A stretch of 64,000 nt of DNA. It comes from Methanotrichaceae archaeon (lineage in GTDB: Archaea; Halobacteriota; Methanosarcinia; Methanotrichales; Methanotrichaceae). The position numbers were made by a program, and so were the translations under genes. This document shows positions 18,999 to 27,522 of the stretch, one piece after another. Where the stretch lies: contig CAVVKN010000009.1 in the NCBI GenBank assembly GCA_963748825.1, positions 247,471 to 311,470 of the forward strand. Reading direction: 5' to 3'. Every line of letters starts with the position of its first letter. The first letter of the stretch is position 1. A model generated the notes under the pieces. That model searched no databases. It was given only the letters and a program-made list of their open reading frames with translations, and had not been told where the DNA came from.

Positions 18999-19991
18999 TC
19001 ATTTCAGCTCATGGGTTTTAGAGTAGTCCACCAGAATGGATATGGGCGCCGTCTTGATCTTTATCCCCAGCTCCTCGGCGGCCACCACCCCATTGACTCC
19101 TGCATAAAAGGCTATGCCGATCTTGCCCGCGCCCACGGGGCAGCCCAGTACGGGCTCGGACGGCTCACCGATTTTTATGAGCCCACCGAGGCCCGCGTTT
19201 CGAGTCTCATCTAAAAGAGCGCGCACAAGCGTTGCCGCCGCGTCGGGCACCTCTCTCACATTGGCCAGCACTGTTCCCGAACCTTTGAAGACGGCATCGG
19301 CAACACTTGTCACCCTGCGGCCCATAAAAACCTTAATGGGATCAAGTGACGAGCCGGCATAGGCAATGAGGTCCGTGAAGTCAAAGGTCTGCCTTTCCCT
19401 GACTTCTGCCAGCCCCGCGAAGCTGGTGAGAACAGGAATTCCTCTTTTCATGAGCATGCCGTCCAGAGTGATGCTGCACAGCGTTGCTATGCCCAAAGCT
19501 CCTTTTGGAATCTCGATAGTTGAGAAGCTCTCTCCCTCATCCAGGATGAGCACGCGACGGCTTATGGTGTAGCCTGCGTCGAAAGCGTGCCCAAGTATCT
19601 CGAAGACCTCTTCCGCATTTGCTTTGTCGATGATGCTGGTATTGGCGATTACATCTCCTTGACCGGACTTAGGATCGAAACTGGTCTTGAACATATATTC
19701 TTCAATCCTGGTATTGACAAAGCCTATCCGGTCGTCGACAAGGGCGTCGCCCAGCTCCCTTGACCCCAGAGGTGTGAGCACCCGGCCGCTGTAGCCTTTC
19801 TTCTTGGTGAATCCCAGCTCGTCCAGGATCTTGAGGTTGTAGCGCACAGCCCTCTCTCCCAGGTCATAGCCGCGACTACTAAGGCAATCAGAGATCGCTC
19901 TGGCCCCCACCGGGGTGCCTGTGTTTTCGATAACGCGCAGGATCTCAATTAGCCTTCTCTGGCTCACATGCGCCTTGGTGAGAAGCTTCAT
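18999..19991 (-). CDS. nrpR: NrpR-family (NrpRI-like) transcription regulator, wHTH + one DUF128 domain
   Basis: IEILR...PVGA..I...L..RGY.LGERAVRY.L..LDE.G HTH, then TLCSITLDG..M..GIP, F.DLIAY.GSSLDP and ANVRE.P. Start at MKLLTK. Confidence 0.85.
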   Translation of the reverse strand: MKLLTKAHVSQRRLIEILRVIENTGTPVGARAISDCLSSRGYDLGERAVRYNLKILDELGFTKKKGYSGRVLTPLGSRELGDALVDDRIGFVNTRIEEYMFKTSFDPKSGQGDVIANTSIIDKANAEEVFEILGHAFDAGYTISRRVLILDEGESFSTIEIPKGALGIATLCSITLDGMLMKRGIPVLTSFAGLAEVRERQTFDFTDLIAYAGSSLDPIKVFMGRRVTSVADAVFKGSGTVLANVREVPDAAATLVRALLDETRNAGLGGLIKIGEPSEPVLGCPVGAGKIGIAFYAGVNGVVAAEELGIKIKTAPISILVDYSKTHELK

Positions 19992-20075
19992 CTTCCTTGC
20001 TCCTCCGGGAAAGGCCATATATATCTTATGCGGATAACACTTGCCCGGCTTAAAACCCGGAAAAGATAAAATCAT

Positions 20076-20148
20076 AGTCCCGTGGGGTAGCGGTCAATCC
20101 TGAGGGCCTTTGGAGCCCGCGACGGCGGTTCGAATCCGCCCGGGACTA
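20076..20148 (+). tRNA. tRNA-Gln (TTG)
   Basis: Acceptor AGTCCCG/CGGGACT, anticodon loop CT-TTG-GA, T-loop GGTTCGAATCC; CCA not encoded. Confidence 0.95.
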
Positions 20149-20245
20149 CTTCCAACCTTAAAACCATTGGAAACGTAGATATATTCGCTCATATCTATGA
20201 GGTGAAGGCCGGTCCATGTTTTGGCCTGGCATCAAGACGGCAATT

Positions 20246-20320
20246 GCTCCGGTAGTGTAGCCCGGCCAATCATTTCGGCCTTTCAAGCCGAAGACTCGGG
20301 TTCAAATCCCGGCCGGAGCA
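20246..20320 (+). tRNA. tRNA-Glu (TTC)
   Basis: Acceptor GCTCCGG/CCGGAGC, anticodon arm TCGGC-CTTTCAA-GCCGA, T-loop GGTTCAAATCC. Confidence 0.95.
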
Positions 20321-20502
20321 TTTTATTATCAACTAATTTTTGCCGAATACCTGGATTTTGAGTAATAGCATCTGCCATCCGTCTCGTGTGAAGAAAAGAG
20401 GATTTCCGCGCGAAGACTGCCCCCGACGAGTTATGCATCTTTTCAGCATCCAATAATTAAATGGGTCCATAGGTATTGATTGTATCCAAAACTCCCGACA
20501 TA

Positions 20503-20739
20503 TTTATATTCCATAAGCCGGAAGATTGGGATTGTGCCTGAGCAAAATACTCAAATATGAGCGAAGAAGCATGTGAGTCAGGTACCCCACACGACAAAGC
20601 ACCAATATGGCGGCTTTTGCGGGTTTATACCCAGGCAAGGGCTGGCTAATCTTTGTCGGCGTGGTGCCAGGGATTTAGGCCACGACTGATGGCTTGGATC
20701 CTGAAGCGTTGATGTTTAACCTAAGGAGGTGGGAAAGAA
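20503..20739 (+). promoter_or_regulatory. TATA box plus structured three-stem 5' leader of array copy 1
   Basis: TTTATAT at 20503. Stems GTGCCTGA(20534)/TCAGGTAC(20578), CCACACGACAAAG(20587)/CTTTGTCGGCGTGG(20651) and GGATTTAGGCCA(20671)/TGGCTTGGATCC(20690). RBS AGGAGGT. Confidence 0.7.
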
Positions 20740-21468
20740 ATGAGAAAATTAATAGCTGTTTTGGTTATTATCGCCATGGCCGTAGTAGGCATGGCCGGTG
20801 CCGCAAATTACATGTACGAAAAGGCATCGATCAAGGGCGTAGGATACAAGAACGTAGAGATGATCATTTCCACCCAGTATGGCTTTATGGGCCAGAAGCT
20901 GGTAGAGAAAGAGTCCGGTTCCGGTAACGTCATCACCGAGAGGACTGAGCTTGAGGCTGAGAGACAGCTCGATAGGCTCGGCAACTCACTTGGTGTCTGC
21001 CCGTGGCCAACCGGAAGTGTCCCCATGGACTACATCAACTTCACCAAGGAAGCTGAGTTCGAGTACATGCCCGTCTCTTACCAGACCGGCACCTACGACC
21101 AGAAGTGGGTAGAGAAGTTGTGCGTGCAGAACTACAGAATCGGCGCTGTGCTGACTGAGATGTACACCCATGCTGAGCACCTGCAGAAGACCACCGAGGT
21201 CAAGACCCGCGGATACGGCAATACTCTAGTTACTGCCTGCTGCACCGGTGTTCTCGAGGCTAACCTGAACAGCAACGTCATCGGCGTTGCCCACATCGGC
21301 TGGATCTCCAGGGACCCCATGGCTGAAAACAACCTCAAGGGCCGCCATGCTGAGTACGGCAGATCTGTCGAGGACCTGACTGGCGTCTTCTCCATCGAGA
21401 AGTTCATCCAGCTCTGGGGCAACTCCACATGCGGCGCAATCAGCGTTGACTGGCTGCCCTGCGTGTAA
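20740..21468 (+). CDS. Secreted Cys-containing structural protein, copy 1 (probable major sheath protein, MspA-like)
   Basis: Signal peptide, strong RBS, high-expression codon usage, beta-strand-like alternating pattern, 6 Cys, C-terminal WLPCV. The sheath assignment is an inference. Confidence 0.75.
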   Translation: MRKLIAVLVIIAMAVVGMAGAANYMYEKASIKGVGYKNVEMIISTQYGFMGQKLVEKESGSGNVITERTELEAERQLDRLGNSLGVCPWPTGSVPMDYINFTKEAEFEYMPVSYQTGTYDQKWVEKLCVQNYRIGAVLTEMYTHAEHLQKTTEVKTRGYGNTLVTACCTGVLEANLNSNVIGVAHIGWISRDPMAENNLKGRHAEYGRSVEDLTGVFSIEKFIQLWGNSTCGAISVDWLPCV

Positions 21469-21495
21469 ATAGAAATCTGTAACAATCGAATCTGG

Positions 21496-21533
21496 CTCCG
21501 GGCTCTTAAGCCTGGAGTTAAATTTGTTTTTTT
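21496..21533 (+). terminator. 3' hairpin plus T-tract after copy 1 (equivalents at about 22721-22757 and 23813-23851)
   Basis: CTCCGGGCT-CTTA-AGCCTGGAG then TTTGTTTTTTT; similar hairpins follow copies 2 and 3. Confidence 0.65.
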
Positions 21534-21688
21534 GCTTCTTATTTGGACGGGCTTCCCATCGTATTATGCAGAAATCTCTATGCAAGAGATTCCTAAATCA
21601 TGGGATGCAGGTCACTTGCAATAGAAGAAAACAAGCAATAGAAGCACATATATTGGACGACAAAATTCTCTTTTTCATGCTCGATAGG

Positions 21689-21964
21689 TTTATATGCCAT
21701 TAACCTAATCAGAAATGTTGTGCCTGAAAAACACACTCAATGGAATCATAGGGTCAGGCGTCTCACGCCGAATAGGGTGGCATTTGACGCTTTCGGCCGA
21801 TGCTTTAGAGCAAAGCCGAACCAAGCGGTTTCATCTTTTCTGGTGGAACACTCCCGAATCTTCGATGAGGGATTCTGCTATCCAATCGGGGTGATGTACT
21901 GAAGGATCATTCGTTGCTGTCAAAGAGCAGCCTTCGATCCTCATGTAAAGGAGGTGGGAAAGAA
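21689..21964 (+). promoter_or_regulatory. TATA box plus structured three-stem 5' leader of array copy 2
   Basis: TTTATAT at 21689. Stems GTGCCTGA(21720)/TCAGGCGT(21754), TCACGCCGA(21763)/TCGGGGTGA(21886) and AGGATC(21903)/GATCCT(21936). RBS AGGAGGT. Confidence 0.7.
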
Positions 21965-22693
21965 ATGAGAAAGTTAATAGCTGTTTTGGTTATTATCGCC
22001 ATGGCCGTAGTAGGCATGGCCGGTGCAGCAAATTACATGTACGAAAAGGCATCGGTCAAGGGCGTTGGATACAAGAACGTAGAGATGATCATTTCCACCC
22101 AGTATGGCTTTATGGGCCAGAAGCTGGTAGAGAAAGAGTCCGGTTCCGGTAACGTCATCACCGAGAGGACTGAGCTTGAGGCTGAGAGGCAGCTCGATAG
22201 GCTCGGCAACTCACTTGGTGTCTGCGCGTGGCCAACCGGAAGTGTCCCAATGGACTACATCAACTTCACCAAGGAAGCTGAGTTCGAGTACATGCCCGTC
22301 TCTTACCAGACCGGCACCTACGACCAGAAGTGGGTTGAGAAGTTGTGCGTGCAGAACTACAGAATCGGCGCTGTGCTGACTGAGATGTACACCCATGCTG
22401 AGCACCTGCAGAAGACCACCGAGGTCAAGACCCGGGGATACGGCAATACTCTAGTTACTGCTTGCTGCACCGGTGTTCTCGAGGCTAACCTGAACAGCAA
22501 CGTCATCGGCGTTGCACACATCGGCTGGATCTCCAGGGACCCACTCGCTGAAAACAACCTCAAGGGCCGCCATGCTGAGTACGGCAGATCTGTCGAGGAC
22601 CTGACTGGCGTCTTCTCCATCGAGAAGTTCATCCAGCTCTGGGGCAACTCCACATGCGGCGCAATCAGCGTTGACTGGCTGCCCTGCGTGTAA
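21965..22693 (+). CDS. Secreted structural protein, copy 2 (probable major sheath protein)
   Basis: 242 aa with 3 substitutions relative to copy 1; start at MRKLIAV after GGAGGTGGGAAAGAA. Confidence 0.75.
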   Translation: MRKLIAVLVIIAMAVVGMAGAANYMYEKASVKGVGYKNVEMIISTQYGFMGQKLVEKESGSGNVITERTELEAERQLDRLGNSLGVCAWPTGSVPMDYINFTKEAEFEYMPVSYQTGTYDQKWVEKLCVQNYRIGAVLTEMYTHAEHLQKTTEVKTRGYGNTLVTACCTGVLEANLNSNVIGVAHIGWISRDPLAENNLKGRHAEYGRSVEDLTGVFSIEKFIQLWGNSTCGAISVDWLPCV

Positions 22694-22837
22694 ATAGAAA
22701 TCTGTAACAATCAAATCTGGCTCCGGGCTCTAAGCCCGGAGTTCAAAATATATTTTTAATCATCGTTTCTTAAAAACGGTATCAATTATATTTTTGATTT
22801 CGTCGCATTGCCAAAAAAGCAGCTCTCGCTCGATAAA

Positions 22838-23058
22838 TTTATATGCCATTAGCCTGATTAGTAGAATCGTGCCTGAGAGACGTTTTCAATTGCCCGATCA
22901 AAAACATGGGGCCAGGCGCCTCACGCCGTGGAGGATCGCACGCAATTGTTCCTTCAGATGCGATAACGCGGTCCGCAGTCCAATCGGGGTGATACATTAG
23001 GGATCATTCGTTGCTTTTAATGCAGCTCTCGATCCGGATGAAAAGAGGAGGGAAAGAA
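22838..23058 (+). promoter_or_regulatory. TATA box plus structured three-stem 5' leader of array copy 3
   Basis: TTTATAT at 22838. Stems GTGCCTG(22869)/CAGGCGC(22913), TCACGCCG(22921)/CGGGGTGA(22985) and GGATC(23001)/GATCC(23031). RBS GAGGAGG. Confidence 0.7.
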
Positions 23059-23787
23059 ATGAGAAAACTGATAGCTGTTTTGGTTATTATCGCCATGGCC
23101 GTAGTAGGCATGGCCGGTGCAGCAAATTACATGTACGAAAAGGCATCGATCAAGGGCGTTGGATACAAGAACGTAGAGATGATCATTTCCACCCAGTATG
23201 GCTTTATGGGCCAGAAGCTGGTAGAGAAAGAGTCCGGTTCCGGTAACGTCATCACCGAGAGGACTGAGCTTGAGGCTGAGAGGCAGCTCGATAGGCTCGG
23301 CAACTCACTTGGTGTCTGCGCGTGGCCAACCGGAAGTGTCCCCATGGACTACATCAACTTCACCAAGGAAGCTGAGTTCGAGTACATGCCCGTCTCTTAC
23401 CAGACCGGCACCTACGATCAGAAGTGGGTTGAGAAGTTGTGCGTGCAGAACTACAGAATCGGCGCTGTGCTGACTGAGATGTACACCCATGCTGAGCACC
23501 TCCAGAAGACCACCGAGGTCAAGACCCGGGGATACGGCAATACTCTAGTTACTGCTTGCTGTACCGGTGTTCTCGAGGCTAACCTGAACAGCAACGTCAT
23601 CGGTGTTGCACACATCGGCTGGATCTCCAGGGACCCACTCGCTGAAAACAACCTCAAGGGCCGCCATGCTGAGTACGGCAGATCTGTCGAGGACCTGACT
23701 GGCGTCTTCTCCATCGAGAAGTTCATCCAGCTCTGGGGCAACTCCACATGCGGCGCAATCAGCGTTGACTGGCTGCCCTGCGTGTAA
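23059..23787 (+). CDS. Secreted structural protein, copy 3 (probable major sheath protein)
   Basis: 242 aa; 1 substitution relative to copy 2 and 2 relative to copy 1. Confidence 0.75.
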   Translation: MRKLIAVLVIIAMAVVGMAGAANYMYEKASIKGVGYKNVEMIISTQYGFMGQKLVEKESGSGNVITERTELEAERQLDRLGNSLGVCAWPTGSVPMDYINFTKEAEFEYMPVSYQTGTYDQKWVEKLCVQNYRIGAVLTEMYTHAEHLQKTTEVKTRGYGNTLVTACCTGVLEANLNSNVIGVAHIGWISRDPLAENNLKGRHAEYGRSVEDLTGVFSIEKFIQLWGNSTCGAISVDWLPCV

Positions 23788-23906
23788 ATAGAAATCTGTA
23801 ACATTAATCAGGCTTCGGGCTGCAAAGCCCGGAGTTCATATTATTCTTTTTAATTATCTTTCTATATTCTTGATTTCGTCGCGTTGCCAAAAAGCAGCTC
23901 TCGCCC

Positions 23907-24352
23907 AAGGGCGTAGGATACTGATCATTTTCACCCAGACCGGCTTTAACGACCAGACGTGGGTAAGAGAAACTGTGCGCGCAGAACTACAGGATCAACG
24001 CTGTGTTGACTGAGGTGTTCACCCATGCCGCGCTATCTGCAAAAGACCACCGAGGTCAAGACCAGAGGCCATAGCACTGCATGGAACCATGAAATCAGCA
24101 GACCGACGCGCAATGGGCGCCTCCGCTGCACAGGTGTTCTTGAAGCGATCCGGAACAGCAGCGTCATCGCTTTGCCCACATCGTTTGGATCTCTCGCGAC
24201 CACAATGCTGACCTATAGCTGAAAGGCCGTCATACTGAGTGCGGCAGATCTGTCGAGGACCTGACTGCCGTCTTCTCCATCGAGAAGTCATCTGGCTCTG
24301 GGGCAACTCCACATGCGGCGCCGTCAGCGTTGACTGGCTGCCTTGCCTGTAA
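23907..24352 (+). pseudogene. Promoterless, multiply deleted relic of the same secreted-protein family
   Basis: Recognisable blocks AAGGGCGTAGGATA, CAGAACTACAG, AAGACCACCGAGGTCAAGACC, GGCAGATCTGTCGAGGACCTGACTG and GCTCTGGGGCAACTCCACATGCGGCG are joined by deletions and frameshifts. Confidence 0.9.
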
Positions 24353-24606
24353 ATGGATCAATTATAAATTTTTTAGGTATATCGCGTCGGATTTTCTTTC
24401 CTGGATGCAAAATCCGGCCGAAAGTAAGATACTTATGTGCCGTCGTGAGCGCGGATCGACTTTTTCCCGTGCAAATAACAGATAGATTTATATCAAATAA
24501 AAACGCCAGAGTATCACTGTAGTTTAAAGATCGCACATAAAGCGATAAAGCATCTACACAAAAGGGATAAGAAATTTGTTGCATTAACATCGGGGGTGAA
24601 TGTAGC

Positions 24607-25401
24607 ATGAAGGGAGTAGTAGGAATAGTTGTACTTGCAATTGCCCTTATGGGGCTATGTGGTACTGTGATGGCCAATCCGCCCATAGTTCCACCCGTAC
24701 AGTATGAGCAATTTTGTGAAAATCATAAGGTATCCGGAACGGGAATTATCGATGTCAGCACATCGGTAATCGACAAAAAAATAGCACTCGAGTATTTCAA
24801 CACCATGAATGGCGACGGAGATCTCGAGTTGGACCAGGAGACCGCATATTCACAGGATGCCGACAAGCTGAAGAGGAATGTATCCTCAGTCAATGGTGGA
24901 AATGAATCCGGTCTAAATCTCATCCAGTCCACTAAGCTGACCTATGCTGGCGAGACGCCCTTGACCGGCGGCAAGCTCCTCAACTCCAAGGCCTTCTATG
25001 GAGGCATGGGTGCCAATGTGCAGGAGCTTTTCTCAGTAAATGAGATGGAACAGGATCAGACCGCGTTCTTTGCCTCAACCACGCCCTATGAGTCAGACTA
25101 CGGCGCACCGGAGAATCTGCCCAACTTGCTCAAGAATGCCGGCAGAGACACCGATACAGTCGAGAAGCTCATGACGGCTAAAAATGGTGTATATGTTCCG
25201 TCCCATCTGATTGGTCTCGAGACCAAGAACTCCTTCAATGGTACCTGGGGCACGGACGCAACCTGGCATAAGATATTCTACAAGGACATAAAGGCCCACG
25301 AGATGTTCACAGGTGTGTTCGAAGCCGAGAAGACCATTAAGTTCCATGAGAACCCGGTGCCTGATAGAATCCGTGCGCCGTGCGAAGGCATAGACTGCTA
25401 G
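24607..25401 (+). CDS. Secreted protein, distant homologue of the array protein (putative minor sheath component)
   Basis: Signal peptide and GGGGGTGA RBS. Shares the E..(V/I).G.G N-terminal motif and the E..TGVF..EK.I C-terminal motif, with terminal cysteines (APCEGIDC). Confidence 0.7.
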   Translation: MKGVVGIVVLAIALMGLCGTVMANPPIVPPVQYEQFCENHKVSGTGIIDVSTSVIDKKIALEYFNTMNGDGDLELDQETAYSQDADKLKRNVSSVNGGNESGLNLIQSTKLTYAGETPLTGGKLLNSKAFYGGMGANVQELFSVNEMEQDQTAFFASTTPYESDYGAPENLPNLLKNAGRDTDTVEKLMTAKNGVYVPSHLIGLETKNSFNGTWGTDATWHKIFYKDIKAHEMFTGVFEAEKTIKFHENPVPDRIRAPCEGIDC

Positions 25402-25461
25402 GCCGAGAAAGCCTGCAGTTTTTTCTATTTTTTTTTAAAAGCTTTATGTTGGGGGGTTAGC

Positions 25462-26640
25462 ATGAAAAGACAAATGATTTGGATAATGATAATATTCATC
25501 CTGACGGCAGCCCCGGTAGCGGCAACGGTTGAGGACTCGGGCATGGCTCCTGGTGATGTTTCGAGCAGCCTCGGGACTGGTTTCACATCGCCAACTTTGC
25601 CTGCATTTCTGCCCAGCCCCTGTTCCGGTGATTCCGGTAGCCTCACCGTGAGCGTCGGCCTTACCGGGCCAGAGTCAGAGCCGGATAAATTGTATACAAC
25701 CCCAGGCAAACCACTGGACTTCATGGTCACGGTAAGTAACGATGGTAGAACGGAGGTGGAGGCACAGGTCGGCGTCAAGCCGGAGGGCTGTCCTTTTGTT
25801 TGGTTTAGCTGGACGACCACTCCCATGACCATTCCGGCAGGAGTCTCTCGCTCGGTGGCCCTGCAAGTTTTTCCGGATACAAACGCAGTAGCCGGAGAGT
25901 ACAGATTCGCGGTGGAGGCCTCGGCCAAATGCCGTAGCTCTGGGCAAAGAGATGCGAAATTCAAGGTGCAAGCATTCGACTACGCCTCAGAGACCACTGT
26001 CGCCGGCACGGGCCAGTTTCAGATGAATAAAGACCTCAGATCCATGAACTCCGGTATCAAATCCACCAAAAACGTGCTGTTTTCCGGCAGCGTGGATGCC
26101 CTGGTGAAGAACGAATACCTGGTGGACGCTGCAAAGGGCAAGAATGCCAACTTCCAGGAACAGGATGCAGTTGACAACTACAATGCCGTCTCTCTTGGGG
26201 ATGCGCTTGTAGGAACAGAGAGCTTCAAGAGTTCAGCGATCTTCGGAGGAGTGGGTGCCAAAGTCAAAGAGAGCTACGATGTGCAGCAGATGGAGTTCAA
26301 GAACCAGGATTTCACACTGCATCAGACGGGATCTCTAAAGAAGACGGCAGAGTTCAAGACGATGGACAACTTCACTGGATATTACCTGATAGATGCTAAG
26401 CAGGTAATTCCCGGTCAGAAGAATCTGAAGGAGTTTGAGGAGTATTTCGGATCATTTGAGATCAATAGGAGAATACTCTTCCGGGATGACACAAAATCCA
26501 GGACGCCATGCCAGGAAGGAGACTGTCTGAAAGCGCCAAGCATTAAGACACCAACACCAATCAGTCCCAGCTTTACCAGCCCCTGCTTAAGCGGCTCATG
26601 CAACGACTTCGTGAACCGACTGAATTCATTCGGCAAGTGA
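25462..26640 (+). CDS. Secreted protein: N-terminal Ig-like domain plus array-type domain and Cys-rich tail
   Basis: Signal peptide; PG....F.VTVSN.G....V.L.V.P....AGEY.F.V Ig-like pattern; then SETTVAGTG...EEYFGSFEINRRI and PC...C...PC...C. Confidence 0.7.
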   Translation: MKRQMIWIMIIFILTAAPVAATVEDSGMAPGDVSSSLGTGFTSPTLPAFLPSPCSGDSGSLTVSVGLTGPESEPDKLYTTPGKPLDFMVTVSNDGRTEVEAQVGVKPEGCPFVWFSWTTTPMTIPAGVSRSVALQVFPDTNAVAGEYRFAVEASAKCRSSGQRDAKFKVQAFDYASETTVAGTGQFQMNKDLRSMNSGIKSTKNVLFSGSVDALVKNEYLVDAAKGKNANFQEQDAVDNYNAVSLGDALVGTESFKSSAIFGGVGAKVKESYDVQQMEFKNQDFTLHQTGSLKKTAEFKTMDNFTGYYLIDAKQVIPGQKNLKEFEEYFGSFEINRRILFRDDTKSRTPCQEGDCLKAPSIKTPTPISPSFTSPCLSGSCNDFVNRLNSFGK

Positions 26641-26808
26641 GCATGGGCGTTCCTTTTTTTTATTTTCCACGGATTTAGGCGGCCAAAACATTAAAATAGC
26701 CTCCAGAGAACCTGTACCAGGGTGCTAGGGTATCAGGAGAGTGAAAGCCTGGGATTTTTTAAATGTGCCCGATTCAGGGACAAACCAGGCTAGAGGAGGT
26801 AGTGTGGA

Positions 26809-27522
26809 TTGAAGAGAGAATTGATCGTTTTAGCGGTTATCGCCATGGCATTAGTTGGCATGGCTGGGGCTGCCAATTACATGTACGAGAAATCGTCTGT
26901 AAAAGGAGTGGGGTATCGAAGCCTGGAGATTGTCATCTCCACACAAAACGGCTTTAATGGGCAAAAGCTGGTGGAGAAACAGTCCGGCTCAGGAAATGTA
27001 ATCACTTCCAGAATTGAGCTTGAAGCCGAGAGGCAACCTACGGACCTGAGTTGTCCCTGGCCGACCGGGACAAATCCCATGGACTACATCAACTTCACCT
27101 CGGAGCAGGAGCTGGAGTACATGCCTGTCTCATATCAGACCGGCACTTATGACCAGAAATGGGTAGACAAGCTCTGCGTGCAGAACTACAAGATAGGCGC
27201 TGTGCTCACTGAGATGTATACCCATGCTGAGCACCTGCAGAAGACCACCGAGGTCAAGACCAGGGGATACAACAACCAATCTGTTACCCCATGTTGCACA
27301 GGCGTTCTCGAAGCCAACCTGAACAGCAACGTCATCGGCGTTGCACACATCGGCTGGATCTCCCGTGACCCAAAGGCTGATAACAACCTCAAGGGCCGCC
27401 ATGCTGAGTACGGCAGATCTGTCGAGGACCTGACTGGCGTCTTCTCCATCGAGAAGTTCATCCAGCTCTGGGGCAACTCCACATGCGGCGCAATCAGCGT
27501 TGATTGGCTGCCCTGCGTGTAA
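26809..27522 (+). CDS. Secreted structural protein, diverged copy 4 (probable sheath protein paralogue)
   Basis: 237 aa with TTG start after GAGGAGGT. C-terminal third is nearly identical to copies 1-3, but two loops differ. Confidence 0.75.
   Translation: MKRELIVLAVIAMALVGMAGAANYMYEKSSVKGVGYRSLEIVISTQNGFNGQKLVEKQSGSGNVITSRIELEAERQPTDLSCPWPTGTNPMDYINFTSEQELEYMPVSYQTGTYDQKWVDKLCVQNYKIGAVLTEMYTHAEHLQKTTEVKTRGYNNQSVTPCCTGVLEANLNSNVIGVAHIGWISRDPKADNNLKGRHAEYGRSVEDLTGVFSIEKFIQLWGNSTCGAISVDWLPCV

Follow-up and report, generated by a model that had tools for sequence, protein, structure and literature searches.

What do three tandem genes with almost the same coding sequence gain from leaders that differ strongly from one another? 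This question is raised by positions 20,503 to 23,058 of a 64,000-nucleotide (nt) stretch of DNA from a Methanotrichaceae archaeon (assembly GCA_963748825.1, contig CAVVKN010000009.1, positions 247,471 to 311,470 of the forward strand), which we analyzed as a whole and call the window; coordinates below refer to it unless stated otherwise. An initial annotation had proposed that each gene copy is preceded by a conserved three-stem RNA leader, a candidate new cis-regulatory RNA. We found that this observation holds and can be extended to a family-wide RNA, with both the structure and its novelty standing. A selected RNA structure very probably exists in the leaders, which are best described as one RNA family outside Rfam, restricted to Methanotrichaceae and located before this gene. 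The role that we favor, stabilization of the mRNA together with an aid to translation, is an evenly balanced call.

Three tandem open reading frames (ORFs) on the + strand each encode a 242-amino-acid (aa) protein with a signal-like helix at its N-terminus. Each gene would constitute its own transcription unit, made up of a promoter with a transcription factor B recognition element (BRE) and a TATA box, a leader of 190-245 nt, the coding sequence (CDS) and a hairpin followed by a T-run. The measurements behind the initial annotation were reproduced: GTGCCTGA (20534, 21720 and 22869) starts 31 nt downstream of the start of TTTATAT (20503, 21689 and 22838) in all three copies, the leaders are 206, 245 and 190 nt long with ATGs at 20740, 21965 and 23059, and the CDS are homogenized, with pairwise identities of 715, 712 and 720 out of 729 bases. 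Along each leader three helices follow in series. P1 is a hairpin that begins where transcription is predicted to start, P2 a long-range helix and P3 a hairpin that ends a few bases 5' of a strong Shine-Dalgarno (SD) site, GGAGGUG. All pairings originally named P1, P2 and P3 are present in the sequence and in the minimum-energy folds of all three leaders. The features are listed below, with bit scores from the covariance model R1 described further on.

20496..20510, + strand: promoter of copy 1, with TATA box TTTATAT at 20503-20509 and BRE-like CGACATA upstream (sequence reading)
20534..20739, + strand: leader type A (206 nt), SD GGAGGUG at 20725-20731
Stems of type A, + strand: P1 20534-20541/20578-20585; P2 20587-20599/20651-20664; P3 20671-20681/20691-20701 (minimum-energy fold)
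20740..21468, + strand: copy 1 of the gene, ORF for the 242-aa secreted, beta-rich, Cys-containing protein
21494..21535, + strand: terminator-like hairpin and T-run after copy 1 (read by eye; similar elements follow copies 2 and 3)
21682..21696, + strand: promoter of copy 2, CGATAGG and TTTATAT (21689-21695)
21720..21964, + strand: leader type B (245 nt), SD at 21950-21956; model R1 266.3 bits
Stems of type B, + strand: P1 21720-21727/21754-21761; P2 21763-21771/21886-21894; P3 21904-21908/21936-21940 (minimum-energy fold and alignment A3)
21965..22693, + strand: copy 2 of the gene (ORF)
22831..22845, + strand: promoter of copy 3, CGATAAA and TTTATAT (22838-22844)
22869..23058, + strand: leader type C (190 nt), SD at 23045-23051; model R1 149.5 bits
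Stems of type C, + strand: P1 22869-22876/22912-22919; P2 22921-22928/22985-22992; P3 23001-23005/23031-23035 (minimum-energy fold)
23059..23787, + strand: copy 3 of the gene (ORF)

In type B, P2 encloses an inner stem and three hairpins and P3 holds an inner hairpin. Across the family, leaders span 190-285 nt and sort into three types that correspond to the three window copies (A, about 206 nt; B, about 250 nt; C, about 190 nt), with a P2 insert that ranges from about 26 to more than 110 nt, from a short hairpin up to a three-hairpin domain. A coding role of the leader was rejected because the ORFs within it differ in frame, start and length between copies and because its indels are of many sizes. 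In types B and C, the P2 3' strand (CGGGGUGAUG; 21886-21899 and 22985-22995) resembles a SD site followed by AUG.

Is the shared fold the product of selection? Relatives of the protein were gathered from a genome collection (469 confirmed among 487 candidate stretches) and 77 loci were kept, nearly all of them from Methanothrix or Methanotrichaceae metagenome-assembled genomes. A first set of 49 distinct leaders had been chosen through the 5' motif and was thus biased for P1; leaders were therefore re-collected by nhmmer and covariance-model searches. Thirty-eight of them, of type B, type C or divergent, were aligned by MAFFT blind to structure (alignment A3). From A3 we built the covariance model R1 (257 positions, 70 pairs), whose training included no type A leader. 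MAFFT alignments of all types (A2) or of type A alone (A4) were discarded, as the P2 3' strand was misaligned in some type A rows; this led RNAalifold to an alternative P2 on type A, and a model-fitted alignment was used for that type instead. The larger alignment comprised 83 R1 matches (81 distinct), distant genera included. Pairing was compared with shuffles and with a slid control in which the 3' partners were displaced by 1-3 columns.

On A3, RNAalifold recovered P1 (7 bp), P2 (7 bp) and P3 (5 bp). When the full fold of copy 2 was projected onto this alignment, 82.1% of 2458 cells were paired, compared to 35.5-40.7% in the slid control, and the covariation score of 0.159 (0.051-0.071 slid) was reached by none of 500 shuffles. 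Both sides had changed at 38 of 76 pairs, a count matched by 3 of 500 shuffles. The 83-match alignment gave a similar picture, with 85.4% of 3879 cells paired (34.6-41.3% slid), both-side changes at 61 of 70 pairs and no shuffle out of 500 reaching any of five measures; the covariation score was 0.191 against 0.030-0.044 slid. Among the 44 distinct rows outside the R1 training set, P1, outer P2 and P3 were paired in 97.5%, 90.7% and 96.5% of cells, respectively, versus 21-66% slid. The collection of leaders and the covariance model envisaged in the initial annotation also proved workable: R1 finds unseen type A leaders at full length and places window copy 1 at exactly 20534-20742 (50.3 bits, E 3e-14). 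Recovery by RNAalifold on a plain alignment, excess over slid and shuffled controls, and transfer to unseen leaders together bear out the proposed selection on RNA structure.

The three helices are maintained in different ways. P2 is paired in 92.2% of cells, with both-side changes at 8 of 8 pairs and 45 distinct variants among 60 complete rows. P1 is paired in 95.0% of cells (24 distinct variants in 77 rows), its 5' strand is almost invariant and its 3' strand varies by wobble (U-A 43/U-G 32, G-C 44/G-U 32) with few double changes. P3 is paired in 98.3% of cells with 10 distinct variants in 60 rows, 43 of which carry GGAUC/GAUCC. Changes in P1 and P3 are mostly one-sided switches between G-U and A-U or between G-C and G-U, and few are double. 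The initial claim of compensatory change is thus right for P2 and the inner helices, where such change is abundant, but not for P1 and P3, which are kept mostly as sequence. Only GUGCCUG, CAGG and the stretch from SD to AUG reach at least 90% conservation among the 81 leaders; conservation of 70-90% is seen in the outer strands of P2, in P3 and in the P1 loop, there in its 5' half. Among the 3879 cells, G-U/U-G combinations (476) exceed A-C/C-A (173), and this excess indicates pairing on the sense-strand RNA rather than on the antisense strand or in DNA.

The near-invariant 5' bases could also be read without any selected RNA function, as a promoter-proximal or operator element in DNA, with the helices being inherited chance pairings. 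GTGCCTG is indeed invariant and directly adjoins the promoter, P1 is an inverted repeat in DNA as well, and a fourth place in the genome has the same promoter together with GTGCCTGG. Such an element would not account for P2 and inner helices that keep pairing through the variants counted above and through changes on both sides of most pairs, for the strand-specific pairing evident from the G-U excess, for P1 arms that lie 35-45 nt apart, or for a structure that transfers to unseen leaders of about 45% identity. This explanation, already disfavored, is very improbable in our judgment.

If the structure resides in RNA, the stems should lie within the transcript. Archaeal promoters combine a BRE with a TATA box centered about 27 nt upstream of the start, which typically has a pyrimidine at -1 and a purine at +1. 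The 5' ends of the leaders show both the BRE/TATA spacing and the pyrimidine/purine start. Of 71 distinct 5' ends, 54 have a TATA-like box that starts at -31, 6 have it at -32, 4 at -30 and 2 at -29, and no such box was found upstream of the remaining 5; the pyrimidine/purine step is present in 69 of the 71. A start at the G of GUGCCUGA is therefore well predicted, from this conserved geometry and from one contig joint. The RNA evidence consists of assembled contigs from four libraries of four studies, a form of data from which starts, ends, strand and level are not readable. Contigs overlap parts of the leaders and run on into the CDS (21872-22052 in library X1, 21887-22004 and 22979-23075 in X4). 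In library X2, one contig joins 20714 to 20534 with GG in between, the joint being the predicted first transcribed base; this and the two extra G would fit template switching by reverse transcriptase at an RNA 5' end, a single weak hint. Contig depth is about zero upstream of the starts (20300-20423, 21540-21663 and 22656-22779) in the four libraries, an absence that in contigs proves nothing and was not counted. Summed contig depth over the CDS amounts to 10^3-10^4 in all four libraries and hints at abundant transcripts, even though such depths cannot rank genes. Literature searches combining Methanosaeta, untranslated region (UTR) and transcription start sites returned no paper, and a search for Methanosaeta RNA motifs with covariation gave no mention of Methanosaeta among the top matches.

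The same contigs bear on the suggestion that the leader is a processing platform, with the transcript being cut within or after it. The resulting mRNA would be shorter, would last longer and would be translated better, and a stable small RNA derived from the leader might arise as well. In a related methanogen, 5' UTR processing raises stability and translation genome-wide, according to the available text of the study (PMC5499594), and helices that are compact, stable and conserved might persist as an RNA of their own. In all four libraries the leaders also have less summed contig depth than the CDS, although such depths are no measure of level. On the other hand, contigs do bridge from leader into CDS, and lower cover of the leaders is expected in any case, since the contigs originate from related strains and divergence is faster in leaders than in the CDS. 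We consider this suggestion improbable.

What kind of element, then, is the leader? The initial annotation had recognized no known Rfam family, and our searches concur: no Rfam 15 family reaches its gathering score within window 19800-24800 (E up to 10) apart from two tRNAs. Overlaps with the leaders fall far below Rfam thresholds (PYLIS_6, 21.9 bits versus 80; IRES_Tobamo, 23.5 versus 50), and an equivalent search of 7 related loci (E up to 0.1) returned only two tRNAs. The 81 leaders contain no conserved unpaired core or junction of the kind typical of a ligand pocket, which, along with the variable P2 insert, argues against a metabolite aptamer. We know of few conserved cis-acting mRNA structures in Archaea and of none described for Methanothrix.

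The two ends of the leader are more informative about its role. In folds of 76 leaders, each extended by 30 nt of CDS, the mean unpaired probability of bases 1-7 is 0.12, compared to 0.45 in shuffled sequences, so that the leader is predicted to have the 5'-terminal helix characteristic of mRNA stabilizers, and to have it at the predicted start. The SD site has a mean unpaired probability of 0.46 versus 0.29 shuffled and exceeds its own shuffles in 82% of the leaders. The minimum-energy folds leave it free in copies 2 and 3 and pair part of it in copy 1, between CCCAC and GUGGG. Some leaders have an altered or deleted P1. Two of these (L007 and L010) carry new local hairpins, and in L043 a deletion goes together with an altered 5' strand, for which a new pairing partner exists; in 4 of 5 such P1-variant leaders the minimum-energy fold pairs base 1, the exception being L023:3291. 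A buried 5' end, an open SD site and a re-made 5' helix favor a stabilizer and translation aid. The initial annotation had left the choice among a stabilizer, a translational enhancer and a protein-binding switch; the first two are favored here over the last. In the mechanism that we propose, P1 would bury the 5' end and hinder decay that depends on it, P2 and P3 would lock the rest of the leader into self-contained helices away from the ribosome-binding site, and the mRNA for a secreted structural protein made in abundance would as a result last long and be translated well. A new family of structured 5' leaders acting in this way is, on our models, a proposition that could go either way.

Shortened leaders of 75-107 nt stand before further tandem copies elsewhere (L012:3583-3657, L023:3291-3380 and L043:234-340). 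One consists of P1 and SD only, one of P1 and a mini-P2, and one is a deletion form in which the altered 5' strand finds a new pairing partner.

Several observations weigh against a stabilizing role. The 5' strand of P1 is almost invariant and P3 has one sequence in most rows, though a stem kept for stability only should covary like P2; such conservation suggests that the sequence itself is recognized, or that the first transcribed bases are constrained at the DNA level. The SD site, with an unpaired probability of only 0.46 and the 5' strand of P2 as its main competitor, makes a switch conceivable. An RNase J-type 5'-3' exonuclease was not established in our search (TIGR00649, 47.7 bits versus a cut-off of 400); the two beta-CASP proteins that were found resemble aCPSF1 and Thermus TTHA0252. 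Folding of single sequences is only modest evidence, given z-scores of -2.80, -2.56 and -1.33 for copies 1, 2 and 3 (200 dinucleotide shuffles each, of which 1, 1 and 16 folded equally well). The 83-match alignment leans towards structure, being fitted to the model. Finally, the distinct and apparently long-lived leader types fit copy-specific regulation as well as they fit a plain stabilizer.

This last point rests on how the leader is distributed and how it evolves relative to its gene. R1 matches occur in 69 of 105 Methanotrichaceae genomes and, when only genomes of 90% completeness or more are counted, in 46 of 64; they extend to 14 of 16 genera, with one genus at 0 of 16 genomes. The protein is more widely spread, being present in 104 of the 105 genomes, with between 1 and 29 matches in each, and in every one of the 16 genera, so the leader marks a subset of paralogues. 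In the window's own genome R1 matches only the three copies, and 21 of 21 distant R1 matches that were inspected are followed by an orthologous ORF. Across 25 pairs within loci, the CDS are 95.8% identical and the leaders 45.8%. Between the window and other genomes, leaders of the same type are 68-70% identical and leaders of different types 41-49%, whereas CDS identity is about 84-85% irrespective of type. The leader types are therefore older than the species and have stayed distinct under concerted evolution of the CDS. The boundary of concerted evolution falls at the ribosome site (window 20740-23787 and loci L004-L055), and types A, B and C are common to several species. The earlier idea that the different inserts tune each copy separately is compatible with the age of the three leader types, and these types fit equally well with gene conversion tracts that end where similarity ends.

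In light of this, the leader could act as a regulatory switch, with its sequence-conserved P1, P3 or both binding a protein or sensing a signal. In one variant, an opened P2 would free CUCAC or CCCAC in its 5' strand, which faces GUGGG at the 3' edge of the SD site, and the resulting pairing would block translation; three leader types would then give separate control to three otherwise identical genes. Conservation of the P1 5' strand and P3 as sequence rather than by covariation speaks for such a switch, as does the conservation of the 5' part of the P1 loop (70-90%). J12 and the P2 5' strand form the largest predicted upstream partner of the SD site, albeit a weak one (a mean of 1.31 of 9 bases in 73 leaders), and the minimum-energy fold of copy 1 uses the CCCAC-GUGGG pairing. 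The types are also kept apart across species (0.68-0.70 within versus 0.41-0.49 between types) despite the homogenized CDS. Yet distinct leaders could persist simply through the conversion tracts just mentioned, the leaders do not have the conserved unpaired core or junction of metabolite aptamers, and their P2 insert varies from a simple hairpin to a multi-hairpin domain. P2 is moreover much the stronger helix compared to the alternative of 5 bp, the invariance of the SD stretch places that alternative beyond a covariation test, and our analysis identified no candidate binding protein. Overall, we regard a switch as possible but rather unlikely. A more specific form is less probable still. 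Here the leader types would be paralogous riboregulators that place genes for the same protein under separate post-transcriptional control, with a factor or the status of the envelope or secretion sensed via P1 and P3, and with P2 opening to let its 5' strand pair with the 3' edge of the SD site. If true, it would represent a family-wide archaeal cis-regulatory switch of an undescribed class.

The protein itself has no match in Pfam, NCBIfam or PDB sequences, and its family comprises 206 representative clusters at E 0.001 or below. The fold predicted by AlphaFold (pLDDT 75.5) is all-beta, and its strands are very long. A Foldseek search of the PDB found no match at E 0.001 or below; its top rows were pore-forming proteins with TM of 0.12 or less, which we took as meaningless, and the ESM Atlas provided no usable match. 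The protein may be the Methanothrix major sheath protein MspA (Mthe_1069), to which there are indirect fits: it is secreted, all-beta with long strands, encoded in tandem copies and found in 104 of 105 family genomes. MspA is described as very highly expressed and as having a tandem paralogue in the available text of a published study (PMC10470525).

In bacteria, mRNAs for envelope and secreted proteins are stabilized by 5' UTRs such as the ompA leader, the Bacillus aprE leader and the leaders of S-layer genes. The Methanothrix leader resembles these in being long, in preceding what would be a heavily expressed secreted structural protein, in having a stem-loop at or near its first base and in presenting a strong unpaired ribosome site. 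It differs from them in being archaeal, three-domain and unrelated in sequence, and in the sequence conservation of P1 and P3, which simple stabilizers do not need. Rfam riboswitches and protein-binding leaders share with it a cis-acting, conserved, covarying structure upstream of one gene family, but the Methanothrix leader has no Rfam match, conserved unpaired core or terminator, and its main candidate for sequestering the SD site, the 5' strand of P2, is a weak one. Among Methanosarcinales, for example in Methanolobus psychrophilus and Methanosarcina mazei, 5' UTRs are often long, and they exceed 150 nt in 24% of the mRNAs of one study, where the mtaA and mtaC leaders were reported to contribute to transcript stability (PMC5378194). 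These reports concern the same order of archaea, and in the portions available to us they give lengths and effects and no conserved covarying RNA family. Processing of 5' UTRs in Methanolobus likewise acts after transcription, through the leader, on mRNA stability and translation in a methanogen; its mechanism, as far as the available text of the study describes it, is an endonucleolytic cut near the ribosome site with a uridine signature (PMC5499594), in contrast to the Methanothrix leader, which has no known cut site.

Methanothrix is one of the main acetate-using methane producers, and the leader accompanies a single multi-copy gene, which encodes a secreted beta-rich protein and has transcripts that are well represented in RNA libraries from wetlands and sediments. 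The leader could readily be proposed to Rfam and is a natural test case for 5'-end protection of archaeal mRNAs. Together with its promoter it could serve as an expression part in methanogen genetics. The pairing of homogenized CDS with long-lived, distinct leaders also makes copy-specific control directly testable.

In the genome as a whole, RTGCCTG occurs 1179 times, and the TATA spacing and a following hairpin of this kind accompany it at only 4 places. An occurrence of GTGCCTGA at window 25357 was taken as chance, since the genome scan showed no TATA box at the 31-nt spacing. Outside the window, at G000:C23:245600-245766 (- strand), the promoter layout TTCGACAGG TTTATAA is followed after 31 nt by GTGCCTGG and a folded stretch of about 108 nt ending in a U-run. 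This element is detected by nhmmer at E 3e-4 only and has no R1 match. About 230 nt downstream lies an ORF with an in-frame TAG, which we take to resemble the N-terminus of phenylalanyl-tRNA synthetase alpha. The element may be a small RNA or a leader that shares the P1 module.

The surroundings of the three genes contain several further features. Window 23863-24354 holds a decayed fourth copy of the gene: its first part (23863-23904) resembles the stretch directly upstream of the copy 3 promoter (93%), and what follows after 23904 is internal CDS sequence (76-84% identity, gapped), with no promoter, leader or first part of the CDS. Upstream of the locus, a gene for an NrpR-type regulator lies on the - strand at 18999-20075 (Pfam NRD1_2, E 1.8e-85), and tRNA genes at 20076-20148 and 20246-20320 directly precede the copy 1 promoter. 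Downstream, window 24607-26640 encodes two more secreted proteins of unknown family, of 264 aa and 392 aa, the latter with a sub-threshold match to NPCBM_assoc (21.5 bits versus 24.4). A different leader of about 140 nt, with a promoter-like AAAACATTAAAATAG and an early hairpin, is found in window 26640-26830 before a fourth paralogue (26815-27519). It recurs 3' of the orthologous 392-aa gene at eight other loci (L048, L051, L058, L061, L062, L065, L066 and L071).

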